Origin: Candidatus Latescibacterota bacterium
GTDB lineage: Bacteria > Latescibacterota > UBA2968
Assembly (NCBI GenBank): GCA_965222605.1
Contig: OZ244960.1
Span: forward strand, 4,768,001 to 4,832,000
Direction: 5' to 3'
Length of the DNA: 64,000 nucleotides
Below the pieces are notes generated by a model that was given only the letters and a program-made list of their open reading frames with translations, did not search any database and was not told where the DNA came from. Each line of letters begins with the position of its first letter. Within the stretch, counting starts at the first letter, position 1. This document shows positions 34,872-64,000 of this stretch, piece after piece. The position numbers and the translations under genes are program-made.

Positions 34872-35256
34872 TGGTGGAGGCGGCGGGAATCGAACCCGCG
34901 TCCGAAAGCAGTTTAACAACGGCATCTACGTGTGTAGTCTATTCACTTAGAATCTCACATCTCGCGCCCCAACAGACAGGGTCGCTGAGATGCCAGCTCG
35001 ATGGTTGGGGCTGTGGCCCGCTCTCATCCGGAGGCCCTCGAGCGGAAACCCCCGCACCAGCCTGCTCTCGTCGGCGCTCTGCCCAGACCACGCAGGCAAG
35101 GTCTGAGAGAACGGACTGCGTAACGGTTAGTTAGGCAGCCATTGCGTACGTGTTATCGTCCGCAGTTGCGTTTTTTCCCAATTGTTTTACGAGGTGATTG
35201 GGCACCTCGACACGCAGCCATCATCTCTCCACCCCCGTCGAAGCCATGTCGCCCCC
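34872..35256 (-). ncRNA. ssrA: tmRNA; tag peptide (A)ADDNTYAMAA* at 35163-35131
   Basis: 5' GGGGGCGACATGGCTTCGAC; 3' GGACGCGGGTTCGATTCCCGCCGCCTCCACCA; internal tag ORF ending in AA-stop. Confidence 0.96.
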
Positions 35257-48624: not shown

Positions 48625-48703
48625 TGGCGGGGTAGACGGGACTCGAACCCGCGACCACCGGCGTGACAGGCCGGTACTCTAACCAGAACTGAGCTACTAC
48701 CCC
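48625..48703 (-). tRNA. tRNA-Asp(GTC)
   Basis: Full cloverleaf GGGGTAG...CCGGC CTGTCAC GCCGG...TTCGAGT...CTACCCC GCCA. Confidence 0.97.
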
Positions 48704-56445: not shown

Positions 56446-59400
56446 TCAGGCTCTTTTTGCCACGGCCACAACCCGCTTTGCATATCCCGACATGTCGTCC
56501 ATGAGCGAGTATATAGTGGGCAAGATGACCAGCGTGAGAATGGTCGAGATCGAGAGGCCAGAAATAATCACCAGGCCAATTGGTCCCCAACGTCTGGCAT
56601 TGCCTTCGGCATTGCCGTAAAACATCGGAATAACCAGCGGTGTAAGCCCCAGGATGGTCGTGGTTGCGGTCATTAAAATGGGGCGCAGACGATCTTGTCC
56701 GCCGCGCAAGATCGCATCTCTTCGATATAATCCCTGCTTGCGATAGCGATTGATGTGGTCGATTAATACAATGCCGTTGTTGACCACAATGCCAAACAAA
56801 ATGAGCAACCCATAAGTCGCATTGCTGTCCAGCGCAATGCCGAATGTGTAAAGTCCCAATGCGACACCTATAAATGCAAAACTGATGGAAAACATGATCG
56901 TAAAGGGATGGATATAAGATTCAAATAGCGAAGCCATGATCAGATAAATGAGCAGGGCGGCAAATAACATGGTGAAATTCGTTTCGCCCTCTTCTGAAGA
57001 CATATAGCGGAAGCGGCGATCCATCTGCCAGCTATACCCTTTGGGCAATGGGATGGCATCCATGCGGTCGCGCATTTCATAACCGACCGTTTGGACCTCC
57101 GATGCTTCCGTATTTGCAAACACGGTTACGGTTGCCATCCGATCCTGACGCTCGATGGATCGGGGGCCTTTGGTCAATTCAAAATCGGCCAGGCTGGCAA
57201 ATGAAATCATATTGCCCCGGTTGTTTTCAAAAGAGAGGGTCTTGAGTTGGTCCAGCGTAGCGCGGTCTTCTTCTCGCAATTGCAGCGCAATGTCGATTTC
57301 TCCATCCGGCGTTTTGAATTTGCTGTTTCCACGAGAACCCAATGCCGTGGCAACAGTTGTGGCTATTTGCTGCGGTGAAAGGCCGTATTGTTGCGCGCGG
57401 TCTCTCCTCACCGATACCCTGATTTCTTCTGTGCCACTTTCCAGGCTGGTTTCCACGTCGTGAATGCCTTCAATATCGTTCATTCGCAGCCGAATATCTT
57501 CAGCCAGGATCGCCAGCACTTCGGGATTTCGTCCTTTGATTTCTACCCCGACGCCCGTGCCACTGCTACCACCACGCCTGAAGCCCGCCTTAAAACGCAC
57601 GCCCGGGATATCTTTGGGCAGCAAAGCACTTACCCTTTTTTTTACGTCGTCTGTGCTCAACGGGCTTTCTTCGACGGATTTTAGGTACAAATAAATCGTA
57701 TTGCCGCGTCGGGTACTAAATCGCGTTTTTATCGCTTCGATATCCAGTTCTTCCTTTTGCGGGAGGAGAATGGCTTCAATCTGTTTGTACAGCGCGAGTG
57801 CGTCGTCGATATCGTAAGTTCGCGGCATTTCCACCATATAGCCCACCATGCGGTTGGGTTGATAGCGATAGCGCTGTACTTCAATTTTGGTAAAGATGTA
57901 TATGCCGCCAAATAGGATAAATGTAGCGGCGATAACGGTGGTCCAGCGATAGTGTAACGTGGTGCTAATTATGCGCGTGTAAACACCTTTGAGACCAAGA
58001 TGCCGAAACCGAAAATAGAGATAGCCAGTTGTGGCGATAAACACGCCCAGCGCGATCCACGCGCCTATTGGCACGGTTGAAAACCCGCCCAAAATCCACA
58101 GGGTATTATCTTTGAGCCAGTTGGCCGATTCGCCAACGCCTTTCCGGTAAATGAGATACGCTGCGCCCGCGGCAAATAAAGTGCCCAATCCGATTTTCAA
58201 AAAGAGATCGACGCGGGTACCCGCATTTGAAAATGCCCGAGAGCAGGCCAGCGGGATGAGTGTTAAAGCCACGCATAGTGCCGCTACCACTGCAATGCAT
58301 ACGGTAATGGCAAAATCGCGCATCCACATTGTATTGTAAGAACCCGAAATAAAGATGAGGGGTACAAATACACATATTGTCGTCAGTGCAGCGGCCAGCA
58401 CTGGTACTCCGATTTCGCGGCTGCCCTCAATCGCCGCGGTTCGAGTGCCATCGCCTTCGTCAAAGCGTCTGCGATAAATATTTTCCAGGGCCACGACCGC
58501 CGGATCGACCAGCATCCCAATGGCGACCATCAGCCCCATCATCGAGATCATGTTCAGCGTGATATTCGATCCAAAAACTTGCCGCATCAGGTACATGATC
58601 ATAAAAACGCACAATACGGAAATGGGAATGGCCGACCCCACAATGAGCGTACTGCGGAAATTTCGCAAAAAGACAAAAATGATGCCAATAGCCAGCATAC
58701 CTCCCAAAATAGCGGATTGCCCCAGGCTGGCGATGCCCCTTACCACTGCTTCTGACTGGTCTCGACGCAAGTGCAATCGCAATTTGTCGCGTCCAATTTC
58801 ATCTTGAAGAGCCTTTAACTCTGCACGGACCAGGCGGCAGGTTTCTACCAGATTGGCTGTCGAGGCTTTGCGAATTTCCATAGAGACTACATCGCGTCCG
58901 TCCAGGCGTTCAAAATATCGCTTTTCTGGATAGTCGTAACTCACCTGCGCTACGTCTTCCATATCCAGACCATTGGGAAGTGTGAGATCGCGAATTTGAT
59001 CTACATCTTCAAATTCGCCCACGGACCGAACCGCGAGGCGTTTGCCGCCCTCTGTGACATATCCGCCGGAAATATTGATGTTGTTGGACCGAATCGTTCT
59101 GTTGAGGGTGCGGATATCTAAGCCATAGGCGTGCATGCGATTTTTATCGACATCGACTCTGAGTATTCTTTCATCGGCGCCTTCCATTTCGACATTGCCT
59201 ACCCCGGGGATGCGTAGCAAGCGCGGCAAGATTGTGTTTTTATACACCGTGACGAGTTCCGATTGATTATCGCCCAGCCAGATCATATTGTAGTCCAGAA
59301 TTTCCCAGTCCGAAGAATCCCATCTGCGCATCTCAATGCGTTCGAGGTCTTCGGGAAGTCTGCCGCGAACTTGATCTATGCGATCCCGCACCTGAATAGA

Positions 59401-59712
59401 TTTGAGATCCATATCGGTACCGTAGTCAAATTCCATGAACACATAACCCCGACTGTCATAAGATCGCGCGCGGAGTGATTCTACGCCGGGGACCGTGCCC
59501 AGTATCTCTTCGATTGGCTTGGTAATTTTCTTTTGGATCTCTTCGGGCGATGACGAGGGATATGAATAGCTCACATACATTCTGGGATACTGCAAATCGG
59601 GCGCGTATTCGAGGGGCAATCTGAATAGGGAAATGAATCCCATGACCACGAGACTCAGTGCTGCCATCACAGTGGTAATGGGGTTTTTAATCGCATATTC
59701 TGAGATTTTCAT
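56446..59712 (-). CDS. RND efflux transporter permease (AcrB/SwrC-like)
   Basis: IGMLVDPAVVALENI, FVPL, GIVVNNGIVLID and RLRPILMT; 1088 aa. Confidence 0.93.
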   Translation of the reverse strand: MKISEYAIKNPITTVMAALSLVVMGFISLFRLPLEYAPDLQYPRMYVSYSYPSSSPEEIQKKITKPIEEILGTVPGVESLRARSYDSRGYVFMEFDYGTDMDLKSIQVRDRIDQVRGRLPEDLERIEMRRWDSSDWEILDYNMIWLGDNQSELVTVYKNTILPRLLRIPGVGNVEMEGADERILRVDVDKNRMHAYGLDIRTLNRTIRSNNINISGGYVTEGGKRLAVRSVGEFEDVDQIRDLTLPNGLDMEDVAQVSYDYPEKRYFERLDGRDVVSMEIRKASTANLVETCRLVRAELKALQDEIGRDKLRLHLRRDQSEAVVRGIASLGQSAILGGMLAIGIIFVFLRNFRSTLIVGSAIPISVLCVFMIMYLMRQVFGSNITLNMISMMGLMVAIGMLVDPAVVALENIYRRRFDEGDGTRTAAIEGSREIGVPVLAAALTTICVFVPLIFISGSYNTMWMRDFAITVCIAVVAALCVALTLIPLACSRAFSNAGTRVDLFLKIGLGTLFAAGAAYLIYRKGVGESANWLKDNTLWILGGFSTVPIGAWIALGVFIATTGYLYFRFRHLGLKGVYTRIISTTLHYRWTTVIAATFILFGGIYIFTKIEVQRYRYQPNRMVGYMVEMPRTYDIDDALALYKQIEAILLPQKEELDIEAIKTRFSTRRGNTIYLYLKSVEESPLSTDDVKKRVSALLPKDIPGVRFKAGFRRGGSSGTGVGVEIKGRNPEVLAILAEDIRLRMNDIEGIHDVETSLESGTEEIRVSVRRDRAQQYGLSPQQIATTVATALGSRGNSKFKTPDGEIDIALQLREEDRATLDQLKTLSFENNRGNMISFASLADFELTKGPRSIERQDRMATVTVFANTEASEVQTVGYEMRDRMDAIPLPKGYSWQMDRRFRYMSSEEGETNFTMLFAALLIYLIMASLFESYIHPFTIMFSISFAFIGVALGLYTFGIALDSNATYGLLILFGIVVNNGIVLIDHINRYRKQGLYRRDAILRGGQDRLRPILMTATTTILGLTPLVIPMFYGNAEGNARRWGPIGLVIISGLSISTILTLVILPTIYSLMDDMSGYAKRVVAVAKRA

Positions 59713-59962: not shown

Positions 59963-60844
59963 ATGGGCAATCGCGTCAATCGCGCAGTTGAGTTGCTTTC
60001 ACAAGATCAACCGATCTATTACACGGGCGCACACACAGGGCATGTGCTGACGTTTGAACAAGGGCAGAATGACGCCAGTACCTGGGCGGATTATATCAAT
60101 GTGGGTATGGAACACGGGGCTTTTAATCTGGGGGGGCTTGACGACTATATGCGCGGCCTGGTCAGCGGAGGACCTACAAATAGTGGGCACAAGACACCCG
60201 CTGTTATTGTTGAAGCCCCTGTGGAGGGCGCGTCTGAAAATATTGTGCGCTACAATGCCTGGCAGTTTCGGCAGATTCTCGCACGCGGTGTTCATGGCAT
60301 TTTGGTCTGTCAGGCGGAATCACCCGATGCGATACGCGCTTTTGTCGAGTCGTGTCGCTATCCCATCAGTAAAGCGGGCGTTGGGCGCGGCCTGGGTACA
60401 GGTACGCGAGGCGTGGGGTCCGAATCGTCGGCGGCAGCGATATGGGGTGTTAGCCGCGATGAGTACATCCAGAAGGCCGATCCCTATCCACTGAATCCCG
60501 ATGGCGAACTGCTTCTGGGCATCAAGATTGAGAATGTGCGCGGCGCATCCAATATCGAACAGATTCTCAAGGTGCCCGGCATTGGGTTTGCCGAAATGGG
60601 GCCGGGCGATTTGAGTATGTCGATGGGGTATTTGCACCGTCCAACGCCTTTTCCACCCGAAATGCAAGAGGTGAGGGATCGCGTGAAAGCCGCGTGTGCA
60701 GAAAATGGCGTTGCTTTTCTCGAGGGGGGTAGTCCCGAGACGGTTGCCGCTAAAATCGACGAGGGTGTGCGTGTGGTTTCCGGTGGCAGGGAGGAGATCG
60801 CGCGTATTGGACGCGAATATTCAGGCCGTCGCATGCCGGTTTAA
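59963..60844 (+). CDS. HpcH/HpaI aldolase/citrate lyase family protein
   Basis: MEHG, FVESCRYP, GIKIEN and GPGDLSMSMG. Confidence 0.85.
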   Translation: MGNRVNRAVELLSQDQPIYYTGAHTGHVLTFEQGQNDASTWADYINVGMEHGAFNLGGLDDYMRGLVSGGPTNSGHKTPAVIVEAPVEGASENIVRYNAWQFRQILARGVHGILVCQAESPDAIRAFVESCRYPISKAGVGRGLGTGTRGVGSESSAAAIWGVSRDEYIQKADPYPLNPDGELLLGIKIENVRGASNIEQILKVPGIGFAEMGPGDLSMSMGYLHRPTPFPPEMQEVRDRVKAACAENGVAFLEGGSPETVAAKIDEGVRVVSGGREEIARIGREYSGRRMPV

Positions 60845-60850
60845 TCGCGC

Positions 60851-60890
60851 AAAAAAATAGGGCTGTGCGATGTTTGCATAGCCCTGAAAA
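60851..60890. terminator. Rho-independent terminator
   Basis: aaaaaaat-agggctgtgc-gatgttt-gcatagccct. Confidence 0.65.
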
Positions 60891-60907
60891 TTCGATTTAA
60901 TACGCGC

Positions 60908-61387
60908 TTAAAATGGATTGCCCTGTCGCGCCAGCTCAAATTTTCGCCAGCCTACTTGTTTGTCATTTTCGAATACTTTTTCCACCGCGTAAAAGGAGGA
61001 TGGGTCGTATTCTCGCCAGACGCCCGTTTTTTTATTCTCCAGGTATAGACCTTCTTCTTTTTTTACACCGCTTCTAAAATAGGAGGCCCAATACCCGTCT
61101 TTTTTTTCGTTTGTCCAATTGCTTTCTATTTTTTTCTGTCCGTTGATGTAAAATGTGATTTCAAGCCCGTCTTGCATGACGCCATTTTGGTATGTGCCTT
61201 GCCCGCGTACGTTGCCGATGGCATCGTAATATGTCCAAACCCCAGTGCGGGCACCGCTGTCGTATTGCCCTTCCGCCACTACGCGGCCGTATTGTTTTAT
61301 TTGCGTCTGTCCTTCAAATAGCGAGGGCATTTGGCACCCGGCTGTGAGGATTCCCGCGATAAGAATTGCAATAGCGCGTTTGATCAT
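60908..61387 (-). CDS. Lipoprotein with MORN-variant (YwqK-like) repeats
   Basis: Lipobox TAGC; repeats of G.W..Y...G....EG.Y. Confidence 0.8.
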   Translation of the reverse strand: MIKRAIAILIAGILTAGCQMPSLFEGQTQIKQYGRVVAEGQYDSGARTGVWTYYDAIGNVRGQGTYQNGVMQDGLEITFYINGQKKIESNWTNEKKDGYWASYFRSGVKKEEGLYLENKKTGVWREYDPSSFYAVEKVFENDKQVGWRKFELARQGNPF

Positions 61388-61539
61388 TTATTTTCTCCTG
61401 TTATGAGAGCGCTCAGTCGCCAACTGTCTTTTGGCGGATATTCTACTGTAATAGAACTAATATACAAAACTGTTTTCATAAGGCAAAGATGAAATGGAAA
61501 ATGACTCATTTAATACTTGTACGTGTGCATAAATTGGAC

Positions 61540-61586
61540 CTCAACTACAAAGCGATTGTACTCAACGACCCCTTTATTGTCGCAAC
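61540..61586. promoter_or_regulatory. Candidate tandem XRE operators (CAAC-N9-ATTG twice, 21-bp period)
   Basis: CTCAACTACAAAGCGATTGT and CTCAACGACCCCTTTATTGT, with a third half-site CGCAAC. Confidence 0.45.
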
Positions 61587-61643
61587 CATCCTCTCATCGT
61601 ATTTTAATAAACGATTCGCCCCTCGTGCGGTAAAGAGTCCTAT

Positions 61644-62369
61644 ATGTTACTCACCGAACTCGGCCAACGCCTTCGCGCTCAACGGGAACGCCTTGGCCTC
61701 AAGCAAAACGACGTTGCTAATGCCCTGCAGGTAAGCCCACAGGCCGTTTCCAAATGGGAAAGAGGTGAAAACGGCCCCGACATTGCCACTTTGGGACCTC
61801 TTGCCAGATTGCTCGGTGTTTCTACGGATTGGCTCTTGGGAGCACATGGCGAAAATCAAGATGTTTTTGATGCTACTATCTTCACCTCCACAGTTGTCGG
61901 TGCATACCAAAAATCATTACAAATGGAGGCGAGGGAGTTTGCAGCGTGGGCAAATGGCATTTTGTTTCAATTGACCGAAGCTGTTTTGCGCCACGATGGC
62001 GTTCCGCTCAGATATATGGGAGACGCATTTTTGTGTTTTTTTTCTGGCGTTCACCATCAGCTTCGCGCCGCCCAGGCAGCGGCATTTTCCCAGCGGCTTA
62101 TCGGCGAAGACCTGGTTATTGGCTTGAGCAGCGGTGAGATTTATTTGGGCGCAATGGGGCATCCCGATTACGCCCATCCCGATGTGACAGGAGAAGTGGT
62201 CAATATCGCATTTATTGTTCGAGAATGGGCAGAAACAAATATCCGCAAGGGAATTGCAGCAACGACGTCTGTGTCGAACAATCTCGATGAAATTTTTGAT
62301 ATTTCCCAACCCACAGAAATTAATTTTCGCGGCATCAAAACGCCCATCTCAATTTGCCAGATCAGATAG
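61644..62369 (+). CDS. XRE-family HTH regulator fused to a degenerate class III adenylate/guanylate cyclase domain
   Basis: LRAQRERLGLKQNDVA...VSPQAVSKWERGE..PD; cyclase core RYMGDAFLCFF, IGLSSGEIYLG and GEVVNIA. Confidence 0.85.
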   Translation: MLLTELGQRLRAQRERLGLKQNDVANALQVSPQAVSKWERGENGPDIATLGPLARLLGVSTDWLLGAHGENQDVFDATIFTSTVVGAYQKSLQMEAREFAAWANGILFQLTEAVLRHDGVPLRYMGDAFLCFFSGVHHQLRAAQAAAFSQRLIGEDLVIGLSSGEIYLGAMGHPDYAHPDVTGEVVNIAFIVREWAETNIRKGIAATTSVSNNLDEIFDISQPTEINFRGIKTPISICQIR

Positions 62370-62417
62370 GGATATACCTGCCGCGTTTGTCAACAGTCAA
62401 TAGAGAGAGGATGAAAT

Positions 62418-63869
62418 ATGGCCGATATAGTGTTGCCCGATAGCGCGACTGATATTCAAATTCCCGATTATTCGCATTTGCCTCATAAAGTCGCCGATAT
62501 GTCTCAGGCAGATTTTGGACGGAAAGAGATCACAATTGCCGAGCGCGAGATGCCCGGGTTGATGGCTGTGCGGGAAAAATACGCAGACCAGAAACCTCTG
62601 AAGGGTGCCCGTATAACGGGGTCTCTTCACATGACGATTCAGACAGCTGTGTTGATCGAGTCGCTCAAGGTGCTGGGAGCCGATGTGCGCTGGGCATCGT
62701 GTAATATTTTTTCAACGCAAGACCACGCCGCTGCTGCGATTGCACAAACGAGTACGCCGGTCTATGCGTGGAAGGGCGAGTCGCTGGAAGAATATTGGGA
62801 ATGCACTTTGCAGGCACTCAATTTTGTGGAGGGTGGACCGACACTTATTGTCGATGATGGAGGCGATGCGACATTGCTAATTCACCGGGGGTATCAGGCC
62901 GAAGACGATCCTTCGATTCTCGATGAGCCGACCGATAATCGCGAATTGGAGATTGTCAATGCGGTACTCAAGCGGCAACTCGAACGCAATCCGCGTTTTT
63001 GGCACAATATGGCCGCCGATATTCAGGGTGTGTCAGAAGAGACCACAACGGGTGTTCACCGCCTGTATCAGATGCGGGATGACGGTACGCTTCTCTTTCC
63101 CGCGATCAATGTCAATGATTCGGTGACCAAATCGAAATTCGATAATCTCTATGGCTGCCGCGAGTCGCTCGCCGATGGTATTAAACGCGCGACTGATGTT
63201 ATGGTCGCAGGGAAGGTTGTTTGCGTGTGCGGTTACGGCGATGTGGGCAAGGGATGTGCCCAGTCTATGCGGGGATTTGGTGCGCGCGTGTTGGTGACGG
63301 AAATCGATCCGATATGTGCCTTGCAGGCGGCGATGGAGGGATTTGAAGTGACGACTGTGGAAGATGCCCTTTTCGAAGCCAATATTTTTGTTACGACGAC
63401 GGGCAATACGGATATTATCCGCATTGAGCACATGGAAAATATGCTCGATCAAGCCATTGTGTGCAATATCGGGCATTTCGACAATGAAATTCAGGTTGAT
63501 AAGCTGGTTGATTACCCGAGCATTGTGCACGAAAATATCAAGCCGCAGGTCGATAAATACACGTTTCCAGATGGGCGTGCCATCTTTTTGCTCGCCGAAG
63601 GCCGTCTGGTCAATCTCGGCTGTGCAACCGGGCATCCTTCTTTTGTGATGTCCAATTCGTTTACCAATCAGGTGTTGGCGCAAATGGATCTGTGGGCTCA
63701 GCAGCGCGAAATTGGCGTTTATACGTTGCCCAAACACCTCGACGAGGAGGTTGCGCGTCTTCATCTTGAAAAACTCGGTGTGAAGTTGACCGAACTCACG
63801 CAGAAGCAGGCCGATTATATTGGCGTGTCCACCGAAGGTCCGTATAAGTCCGATCATTACCGGTATTAA
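62418..63869 (+). CDS. ahcY: Adenosylhomocysteinase (SAH hydrolase)
   Basis: [33 protein letters not shown] and GHPSFVMS. Confidence 0.98.
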
Positions 63870-63874
63870 CGATT

Positions 63875-63913
63875 AGGGACTGGGAGCTTATCCCCCAGTC
63901 CCCAACCTTTTTT
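63875..63913 (+). terminator. Terminator-like hairpin between ahcY and metF
   Basis: gggactggg-agcttatcc-cccagtccc followed by aacctttttt. Confidence 0.55.
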
Positions 63914-64000
63914 ATGCGATTTTTAGACTATTTTACCGGCAATCAACCAGTCATTTCCTTTGAGATTTATCCGCCGCAGACGCAGGGTGGCATGCGCGCG
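63914..64000 (+). CDS. metF: Probable methylenetetrahydrofolate reductase, 5' end (truncated by the window)
   Basis: MRFLDYFTGNQPVISFEIYPPQT matches the MetF N-terminal SFExxPP motif; follows ahcY. Confidence 0.72.
   Translation, partial: MRFLDYFTGNQPVISFEIYPPQTQGGMRA

Follow-up and report, generated by a model that had tools for sequence, protein, structure and literature searches.

Why should a protein that joins a DNA-binding head to what looks like a disabled nucleotide cyclase be encoded directly in front of ahcY, the gene for S-adenosyl-L-homocysteine (SAH) hydrolase? The question arises at the end of a 64,000-nucleotide (nt) stretch of a Candidatus Latescibacterota genome (GenBank assembly GCA_965222605.1, contig OZ244960.1, positions 4,768,001 to 4,832,000, forward strand), hereafter the window; the source genome is a single contig of 6.34 Mb. 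The regulator gene occupies positions 61644..62369 of the plus strand and encodes 241 amino acids (aa), in which an XRE-type helix-turn-helix (HTH) is followed by a class III cyclase-homology domain (CHD) without key catalytic residues. After a spacer of 48 bp comes ahcY (62418..63869, plus strand, 483 aa), whose identity is certain, with a TIGR00936 score of 625.6 bits against a cut-off of 497.6. This is the order that an initial annotation of the stretch had described, and it had proposed that the adenine pocket of the cyclase was repurposed to sense an adenosyl metabolite. Our analysis partly supports that interpretation: every part of it that could be tested computationally held, and further support comes from a conserved operator-like element that links the protein to promoters of ahcY, distant ones included. 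We consider it somewhat more probable than otherwise that the protein acts locally, as a one-component regulator of ahcY with an adenine-containing effector, most likely SAH, and is thereby a functional analogue of the known regulator SahR built from different parts.

The DNA-binding head is readily assigned. HTH_3 (PF01381) covers residues 10-64 with 59.3 bits against a cut-off of 23, the domain as a whole extends over about residues 5-65, and the N-terminal 65 residues match structures of the P22 C2/434 repressor type (1adr, E 5.7e-12; 2r1j, E 1.5e-11). The CHD spans about residues 74-240. On the single window sequence the Guanylate_cyc match is weak (15.8 bits, below the Pfam cut-off of 21.9), whereas a profile of 18 C-terminal domains from the family finds solved class III cyclases at 3.4e-15 (2w01), 1.4e-14 (6fht), 3.2e-14 (3r5g) and 6.8e-12 (5x4t). 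Based on an AlphaFold model of the regulator (mean predicted local distance difference test score 87.3; predicted template modelling score 0.74), Foldseek returned 2w01_C as its top match (E 1.1e-10; template modelling score 0.72 by target length), followed by 1wc1, 4yut, 4wp9 and 3r5g, and the best matches are all cyclase domains. The assignment of the C-terminal domain to the class III cyclase fold, predicted by profile and by model, is weak for one sequence and firm at family level. No ArsR-type family appears among the 15 Pfam matches of the regulator protein at E up to 1, and no Rfam family was matched in 60800-64000 at E up to 1, in agreement with the earlier remark that the locus has neither a SahR/SamR-type protein nor a riboswitch. 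A genome-wide search for SAH riboswitches was uninformative, control genomes being equally without a match.

The regulator family has at least 120 full-length members at 55-100% identity, and 49 representatives were found at E up to 1e-30 in a 50%-identity library. It is single-copy in the window's genome, and the nearest relatives of both the regulator and AhcY come from Candidatus Latescibacterota. Existing names for its members are 'class 3 adenylate cyclase', 'transcriptional regulator with XRE-family HTH domain' and 'helix-turn-helix domain-containing protein'; the first of these is probably wrong. A reading as a toxin-antitoxin or prophage repressor was dropped, the HTH scoring under every curated cut-off for such families and the neighbourhood being metabolic. 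The domain profile also matches open reading frames (ORFs) of 719-743 aa at E of about 1e-21 in six genomes from other families of the phylum (G017, G019, G024, G032, G041, G049), which are presumably ordinary multi-domain cyclases outside the regulator family.

What, then, is left of the active site? Canonical positions were placed via HMMER alignments to 2w01 and 3r5g, and residues were counted over 205 distinct family sequences. In cyclases, according to the part of PMC2576301 on which we draw, the base-recognition residue lies 4 positions before the second metal Asp, the second base-recognition residue 7 before the ribose Asn, and the transition-state Arg 4 after that Asn; the window protein has the same spacings of 4, 7 and 4 residues. 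The residues that serve catalysis have drifted. Position 83, the first metal Asp, is T83 in the window protein and S in 99 family members, T in 52, G in 29, D in 13, A in 8, V in 2, and M and E in one each, that is, acidic in 14 of the 205. Position 191, the transition-state Arg, is I191 in the window, L in 180 members, I in 12, R in 1 and other residues in 12, and the Arg is gone even where the Asp is kept. The strand-4 position of the triphosphate Arg is variable (16 residue types occur), and 134 of the 205 sequences retain the Lys/Arg that precedes the last strand.

The residues that would read the base and the ribose are retained. The second metal Asp is D127 in the window (D in 201 of 205), the ribose Asn is N187 (N in 200), and the second base-recognition residue, D180, is invariant (D in all 205). 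The initial annotation had listed the loss of the first metal Asp and of the catalytic Arg, and the retention of the Asp in the GD motif and of the Asn, all of which we recovered; D180, aligned with the second adenine-recognising residue, is an addition to that list. Its remaining item, a Lys-to-Arg change at the base-selecting residue, is true of the window protein (R123) and fails as a family trait: K occurs in 184 sequences, S in 11 and R in 10, and the Arg is confined to the window's near kin. Measured against what defines a class III cyclase, the fold is present, the pair of metal-binding Asp is incomplete, and the pair of Asn and transition-state Arg is broken. The alignments suggest that catalytic residues have been lost while adenine- and ribose-reading residues are frozen across the family. 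Additionally, G172, H173 and Y176 are invariant or nearly so, in a loop that adjoins the pocket and has low confidence in the AlphaFold model.

The pocket also appears to vary with the target gene. The purA-linked clade alone carries D127P and N187S, a thrC-linked member has N187Y, and D127, D180, N187, H173 and Y176 are kept in all ahcY-linked rows; this is only a hint, since just one or two evolutionary events underlie it.

Gene linkage was examined in 104 loci: 23 from species-representative genomes, 80 from metagenome contigs, and the window. The metagenome loci were found with a 7-row domain alignment as query, and all 80 match the regulator across both domains except those cut by a contig end. 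A locus was counted as linked if ahcY was the next gene on the same strand within 700 nt. This holds for 59 of the 104 loci, and since 7 have too little downstream DNA, for 59 of 97 informative ones. When the regulators are collapsed at 90% identity, 48 of 73 informative clusters are linked, and at 70% the figure is 32 of 50. The linked loci belong to Latescibacterota, Hydrogenedentota, Nitrospinota, Planctomycetota and Armatimonadota, and in a maximum-likelihood tree they make up 15 of the 29 rows of one large, well-supported subclade and 41 of the 50 rows of the other, with more in a small sister clade. As a control, none of 57 HTH-only XRE loci holds ahcY, a weak control made up mostly of Bacillota. 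The association with the methionine cycle foreseen in the initial annotation is borne out for ahcY; metF, which it had placed in the same unit, is found behind ahcY in 6 of the 36 ahcY-linked loci with sufficient DNA, all of them in the clade of the window.

A further 15 of the 38 informative loci not linked to ahcY carry a related gene downstream. These genes are metH (L015), metE (L159), a homocysteine S-methyltransferase gene (L133), a gene resembling methyl-tetrahydrofolate (THF):corrinoid methyltransferase (L148), a small ORF with thyX (L152, L157, L160), purA (L131, L141, L142, L153), adenosine deaminase (L007, as well as L109 with an AdoHcyase-like gene behind it), thrC (L017) and rlmN (L124). 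Outside this count, L154 shows the beginning of a purA. The purA-adjoining members form a well-supported clade with a pocket that looks as if re-tuned. The small ORF between regulator and thyX is conserved, with 123-134 aa (L152:5531-5932; L157:768-1136; L160:3118-3486), and has no Pfam match in any of the three and no NCBIfam match in L152, the one examined. In L157 and L160, both metagenome loci, an in-frame stop lies inside the regulator frame, which may reflect a pseudogene, a sequencing error or recoding.

Adjacency by itself does not say how the protein would reach its target. Side-by-side reading of the upstream regions brought out a conserved element of 43 nt, and a matrix from 50 distinct copies holds 34 bits of information. 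Its consensus consists of two 15-bp boxes, TCAAC-N5-CGTYA, 21 nt apart, the second directly followed by TTG. In the window the element lies at 61540-61582 on the plus strand, with a distal operator-like box at 61541..61555 (of the type TCAAC-N5-xxGxA) and a proximal one at 61562..61576, 21 nt further on, which abuts the -35 hexamer of a predicted sigma-70-type promoter (61577..61605; -35 TTGTCG, 17-nt spacer, -10 TATTTT). Relative to the predicted transcription start the boxes are centred at about -64 and -43. The position of the promoter is supported by comparison: 56 non-identical promoters of relatives carry the element at 20 bits or more, and in 49 of them TTGnnn is followed by TAnnnT at a distance of 16-18 nt, usually 17; six control offsets give 0-5 of 56. 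The TTG that ends the element is therefore read as the -35 of the promoter, which is what places the boxes near -43 and -64.

In a deep clade the first box is a perfect palindrome, TCAAC-N5-GTTGA, which makes a decayed dyad, the kind of site a symmetric dimer should recognise, the best reading of the common box. The members of this clade (L145, L147, L148, L152, L159, L160) carry the perfect or near-perfect palindrome together with a TGAAC-type second box about 25 nt before the start codon; downstream of them lie metE, the methyl-THF methyltransferase-like gene or thyX, not ahcY.

Ninety loci have 150 nt or more of upstream DNA, and in 54 of them the double box just before the regulator outscores every other position on either strand of the roughly 10-kb locus. 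Of 12.7 million positions in the 6.34-Mb genome of the window, the window element scores highest, with 42.2 bits; the runner-up has 21.6, and the double box is unique there. Single-box matrices gave about 180-195 matches in the genome and no usable enrichment, the top one (415953) lying inside a coding frame; hence only the double box is specific. In five other genomes a strict IUPAC pattern of the double box recovered the regulator's own site wherever there is one, along with matches without CGTYA, and overlooked distant ahcY sites that the matrix found later. Three loci in which the regulator follows a gene for GTP-dependent phosphoenolpyruvate carboxykinase and precedes a TAXI-family TRAP transporter (L138, L149, L150; TIGR02122, 227 bits, with DctM) have no double box upstream of the regulator.

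Is there a tie between regulator, boxes and ahcY that goes beyond adjacency? We examined ten genomes in which the regulator is not beside ahcY and located ahcY elsewhere in each. In three of the ten the distant ahcY carries the boxes, the -35, 17 nt and TAnnnT. The element scores 24.4 bits in one of these (G002, where the regulator precedes metH; locus L180) and 25.0 bits in another (G158, L186), and a match of at least 21.6 bits in a stretch of 660 nt is expected about once per ten thousand trials from the genome score distribution. In the third (G005, L179) it scores 13.9 bits with a perfect first palindrome, and the regulator's own promoter is without a box there. In one further clade (L125, L126, L137) a palindromic box with at most 1 mismatch stands directly before ahcY within a long spacer, against a background of 50 matches in 701 kb.

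Genomes that lack the regulator bear on the same tie. The family proper (E up to 1e-50) occurs in 23 of 151 sampled genomes of the phylum; 19 of those sampled are further members of the window's genus, and 13 of these have it. In five complete genomes of the genus that lack the regulator, ahcY is retained (87-97% identity) and the boxes are missing (best score 1.5 bits). One of the regulator-free genomes preserves the event itself. At G046:C1:2468251-2472699 (L174) the flanks are 91-94% identical to the window and ahcY-metF is kept, and window positions 61505-62321, which hold the boxes, the promoter and the regulator minus its last 48 nt, are replaced by about 35 nt. This is one clean deletion that left a regulator stub; its junction coordinates are taken from BLASTN, the MAFFT alignment of the junction being misleading. 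At the junction a promoter-like pair, TTGACT and TAACTT separated by 17 nt, lies upstream of ahcY.

How might such a protein work? From the computed fold, residues, linkage and DNA element we infer a mechanism in which the XRE-type HTH would read the DNA, and the cyclase-homology domain, without synthesising a cyclic nucleotide, would serve as dimerisation and sensor module. Two dimers would sit on the two tandem 15-bp boxes, with two HTH heads per box, upstream of the -35 of the regulator's promoter. The bound regulator would control the regulator-ahcY transcript, which metF would join by read-through in the window's clade only. Class III cyclase domains are obligate dimers, and their sites are built from both subunits and close round the nucleotide, as stated in the parts of PMC4886424 and PMC2576301 considered here. 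The former ATP pockets at the dimer interface, two sites in all, retain the adenine pair, the ribose Asn and one Asp and have lost the residues that handle metal and phosphate; they may hold an adenine nucleoside derivative, most likely SAH. Closure of the dimer driven by the ligand would then shift how the two HTH heads sit on the DNA. In these terms the pocket may bind SAH, SAM or adenosine, as the initial annotation had supposed, with a change in DNA affinity as the result.

SAH is favoured as ligand because SAH hydrolase is the main target, because the alternative targets include genes from each branch of SAH breakdown (adenosine deaminase and purA for the first; metH, metE and thrC for the second), and because the phosphate-handling residues are lost. 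By our rough estimate SAH leads by a good distance while falling short of an even chance by itself; adenosine comes next at a low probability, followed by the possibility that no ligand is bound at all, and S-adenosylmethionine (SAM) or 5'-methylthioadenosine (MTA), taken together, and a nucleotide are equally the least probable. As for the sign of regulation, we lean slightly towards ligand-dependent activation over repression, since boxes at about -43 and -64 would leave the -10 and the start site uncovered and since the hexamers are weak. Repression would have to proceed by occlusion of the -35 or of an upstream element. A bolder version, to which we would give somewhat less than even credence, has the family as SAH-sensing promoter-proximal activators, which would be the first transcription factors with a class III CHD as receptor. 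They would adjust the amount of AhcY to the methylation load in five or more phyla that lack SahR-type control, and sub-lineages would have re-tuned the pocket (D127P/N187S, N187Y) for purA or thrC.

Several observations weigh against an SAH-sensing regulator of ahcY. In the window's genome there is no box before metH, purA, thrC or metF, and the regulon is a single operon. The promoter hexamers of the window are weak (8 of 12 consensus bases) and were not listed by a consensus scan. Because the loci were ranked by similarity to the window protein, the linkage counts favour its relatives; 38 of the 97 informative loci do not adjoin ahcY, and in 23 of these the neighbours are unrelated or unknown (TAXI-TRAP transporters, convergent genes or unknowns). 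In seven of the ten genomes with a distant ahcY there is no box before it, one of them with only 162 nt inspected; several of the seven have divergent AhcY types. The regulator is dispensable, missing from 6 of the 19 sampled same-genus genomes, once by deletion. The contexts with purA and adenosine deaminase are as compatible with adenosine or an adenine nucleotide as with SAH, and the pocket assignments derive wholly from alignment to cyclases.

The alternative that we take most seriously, although it seems to us doubtful, is the same architecture and DNA target with adenosine, SAM, MTA, AMP, ATP or cyclic AMP as effector, so that ahcY would be coupled to purine or energy status. The residues at issue, K123, D180 and N187, read adenine and ribose only and are silent on the 5' substituent, and the relatives that precede adenosine deaminase or purA point in the same direction. 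Against an effector other than SAH, ahcY is by far the commonest partner, and the metH, metE and thrC contexts indicate the homocysteine side; the altered pocket of the purA-linked clade suggests that the ligand changed there, not in the ahcY-linked majority. A triphosphate in particular is hard to reconcile with an Arg in 1 of 205 sequences, the 16 residues found at the strand-4 position, and a Lys/Arg before the last strand in 134 of 205. Less probable again is that the cyclase-like domain is a dimerisation scaffold without any effector, and the protein a plain autoregulating repressor or activator that happens to precede ahcY. XRE proteins need a dimerisation module, the obligate dimers formed by class III cyclase domains (PMC4886424 and PMC2576301, in the parts used) would supply one, and a regulon of a single operon is what such a protein might have in the window's genome. 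However, nothing in the role of a scaffold requires that exactly the residues contacting base and ribose stay fixed from phylum to phylum when those for catalysis drift, and a scaffold would not change its pocket residues when the target gene changes.

Two further explanations appear to us very improbable. That the regulator is an active nucleotide cyclase tethered to DNA might be concluded from the name 'class 3 adenylate cyclase' that one source gives to relatives, and from the 14 of 205 sequences that are acidic at the first metal site; the window protein, however, has T83 and I191, and 204 of 205 sequences lack the transition-state Arg, among them those that still have the Asp. With equally little credit, the adjacency to ahcY could be hitch-hiking without regulatory meaning and the boxes could be bound by another factor or, in principle, be an upstream promoter element. 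Such boxes would not be expected to accompany the regulator gene regardless of what lies downstream, to vanish with the regulator in sister genomes, and to stand before distant ahcY genes solely where the genome encodes the regulator, as they do.

How does a sensor of SAH assembled from these parts compare with known systems? Regulation of ahcY and of the activated methyl cycle is known in Proteobacteria, by SahR, MetJ, MetR and riboswitches, and in some Firmicutes. We know of no description of ahcY regulation in Latescibacterota, Hydrogenedentota, Planctomycetota, Nitrospinota or Armatimonadota. For those phyla the regulator family offers a concrete, testable candidate with a defined putative operator. 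SahR, as set out in the part of Leyn et al. 2014 used here (PMC4239095), is an ArsR-type, SAH-responsive regulator of Proteobacteria that recognises a 20-bp palindrome, with a core regulon of sahR, ahcY, metH, metF and metK. According to the same source ahcY is its most conserved target, it is often autoregulated, metH, metE and metF are further targets, SAH-responsive regulons track the AhcY pathway, and the response of SahR to SAH was demonstrated experimentally. By gene linkage and shared boxes, the predicted target spectrum of the present family is the same, a likeness of function only: there is no relation in sequence or fold, an XRE HTH with a CHD taking the place of the ArsR-type winged helix, and two tandem 15-bp boxes abutting the -35 contrast with the 20-bp palindrome. 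Unlike that of SahR, the regulon here is usually one operon, the phyla differ, and the response to SAH is a prediction.

Compared with active class III cyclases (Cya2, 2w01; CyaB, 3r5g; CyaC, 1wc0), the regulator shares the fold with detectable sequence homology, and it retains the Asp of the second metal site, the Asn for the ribose and a base-recognition pair of the adenine type. In contrast, other residues stand in for the first metal Asp (T83) and for the transition-state Arg (I191), an invariant G-H-x-x-Y loop is new, and a DNA-binding head takes the place of a signal-input domain. The P22 C2 and 434 repressors resemble the regulator in the N-terminal 65 residues and in the short dyad-like box of the putative operator, and tandem sites beside a promoter are reminiscent of phage operators; they differ in that the C-terminal part here is a cyclase fold in place of the phage-repressor dimerisation or peptidase domain, and the target is a housekeeping metabolic operon, not a prophage.

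Disabled enzymes are familiar as sensors, for example the phosphoribosyltransferase-like domain of Bacillus PurR and the aminotransferase-like domain of MocR/GabR. As would be the case here, the enzyme fold keeps its recognition of the substrate, loses catalysis and reports a metabolite to the attached DNA-binding domain. To our knowledge a class III cyclase domain has not been known as the disabled-enzyme sensor of a transcription factor. The regulator is, in our assessment, a one-component regulator whose sensor is a disabled enzyme, of a fold without precedent in that role. The full-text literature, subscription journals and supplements being outside that scope, yielded no account of XRE-cyclase regulators or of cyclase domains that serve a transcription factor as sensor; the part of PMC4886424 used here mentions in passing that architectures of cyclase with HTH are listed in Pfam. 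If the proposal is true, it describes a new use of the cyclase fold, ligand sensing without catalysis wired straight to DNA, and operator and protein are small enough to make a metabolite-responsive switch, if the ligand is confirmed.

The regulator and ahcY are probably co-transcribed. The 48-nt spacer between them shows no structure above chance (z -0.01), and the boxes are absent from the regulator-ahcY spacers of at least 150 nt found in 15 relatives. Downstream of ahcY a GC-rich hairpin resembling a terminator or attenuator lies at 63876..63913 on the plus strand, with 9 pairs and, six bases on, six T. Its folding energy is -18.1 kcal/mol (z -3.67), and none of 200 shuffles was equally stable; a scan for the terminator consensus overlooked it because the loop has 9 bases. 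Given this strong hairpin and T-run, metF may be only partly co-transcribed. The 5' end of metF (methylenetetrahydrofolate reductase) follows at 63914..64000 on the plus strand and continues beyond the window; the start noted in the initial annotation is confirmed at 63914, not 63915. The first 29 codons lie inside the window, and the full gene in the genome encodes a reductase of 292 aa with 299.8 bits to PF02219 (L161:914-1789). The gene after metF is convergent.

Elsewhere in the window the only Rfam matches at gathering score are a tmRNA (190.5 bits) and a tRNA, at 34872-35256 and 48628-48703, both on the minus strand. A gene for an AcrB-type resistance-nodulation-division pump lies 2 kb upstream of the regulator (56446-59712, minus strand), and in two Hydrogenedentota loci (L013:1776-4976; L022:1758-4967) an AcrB-type gene ends 24-33 nt before the regulator on the same strand; these AcrB-type neighbours are probably a coincidence.

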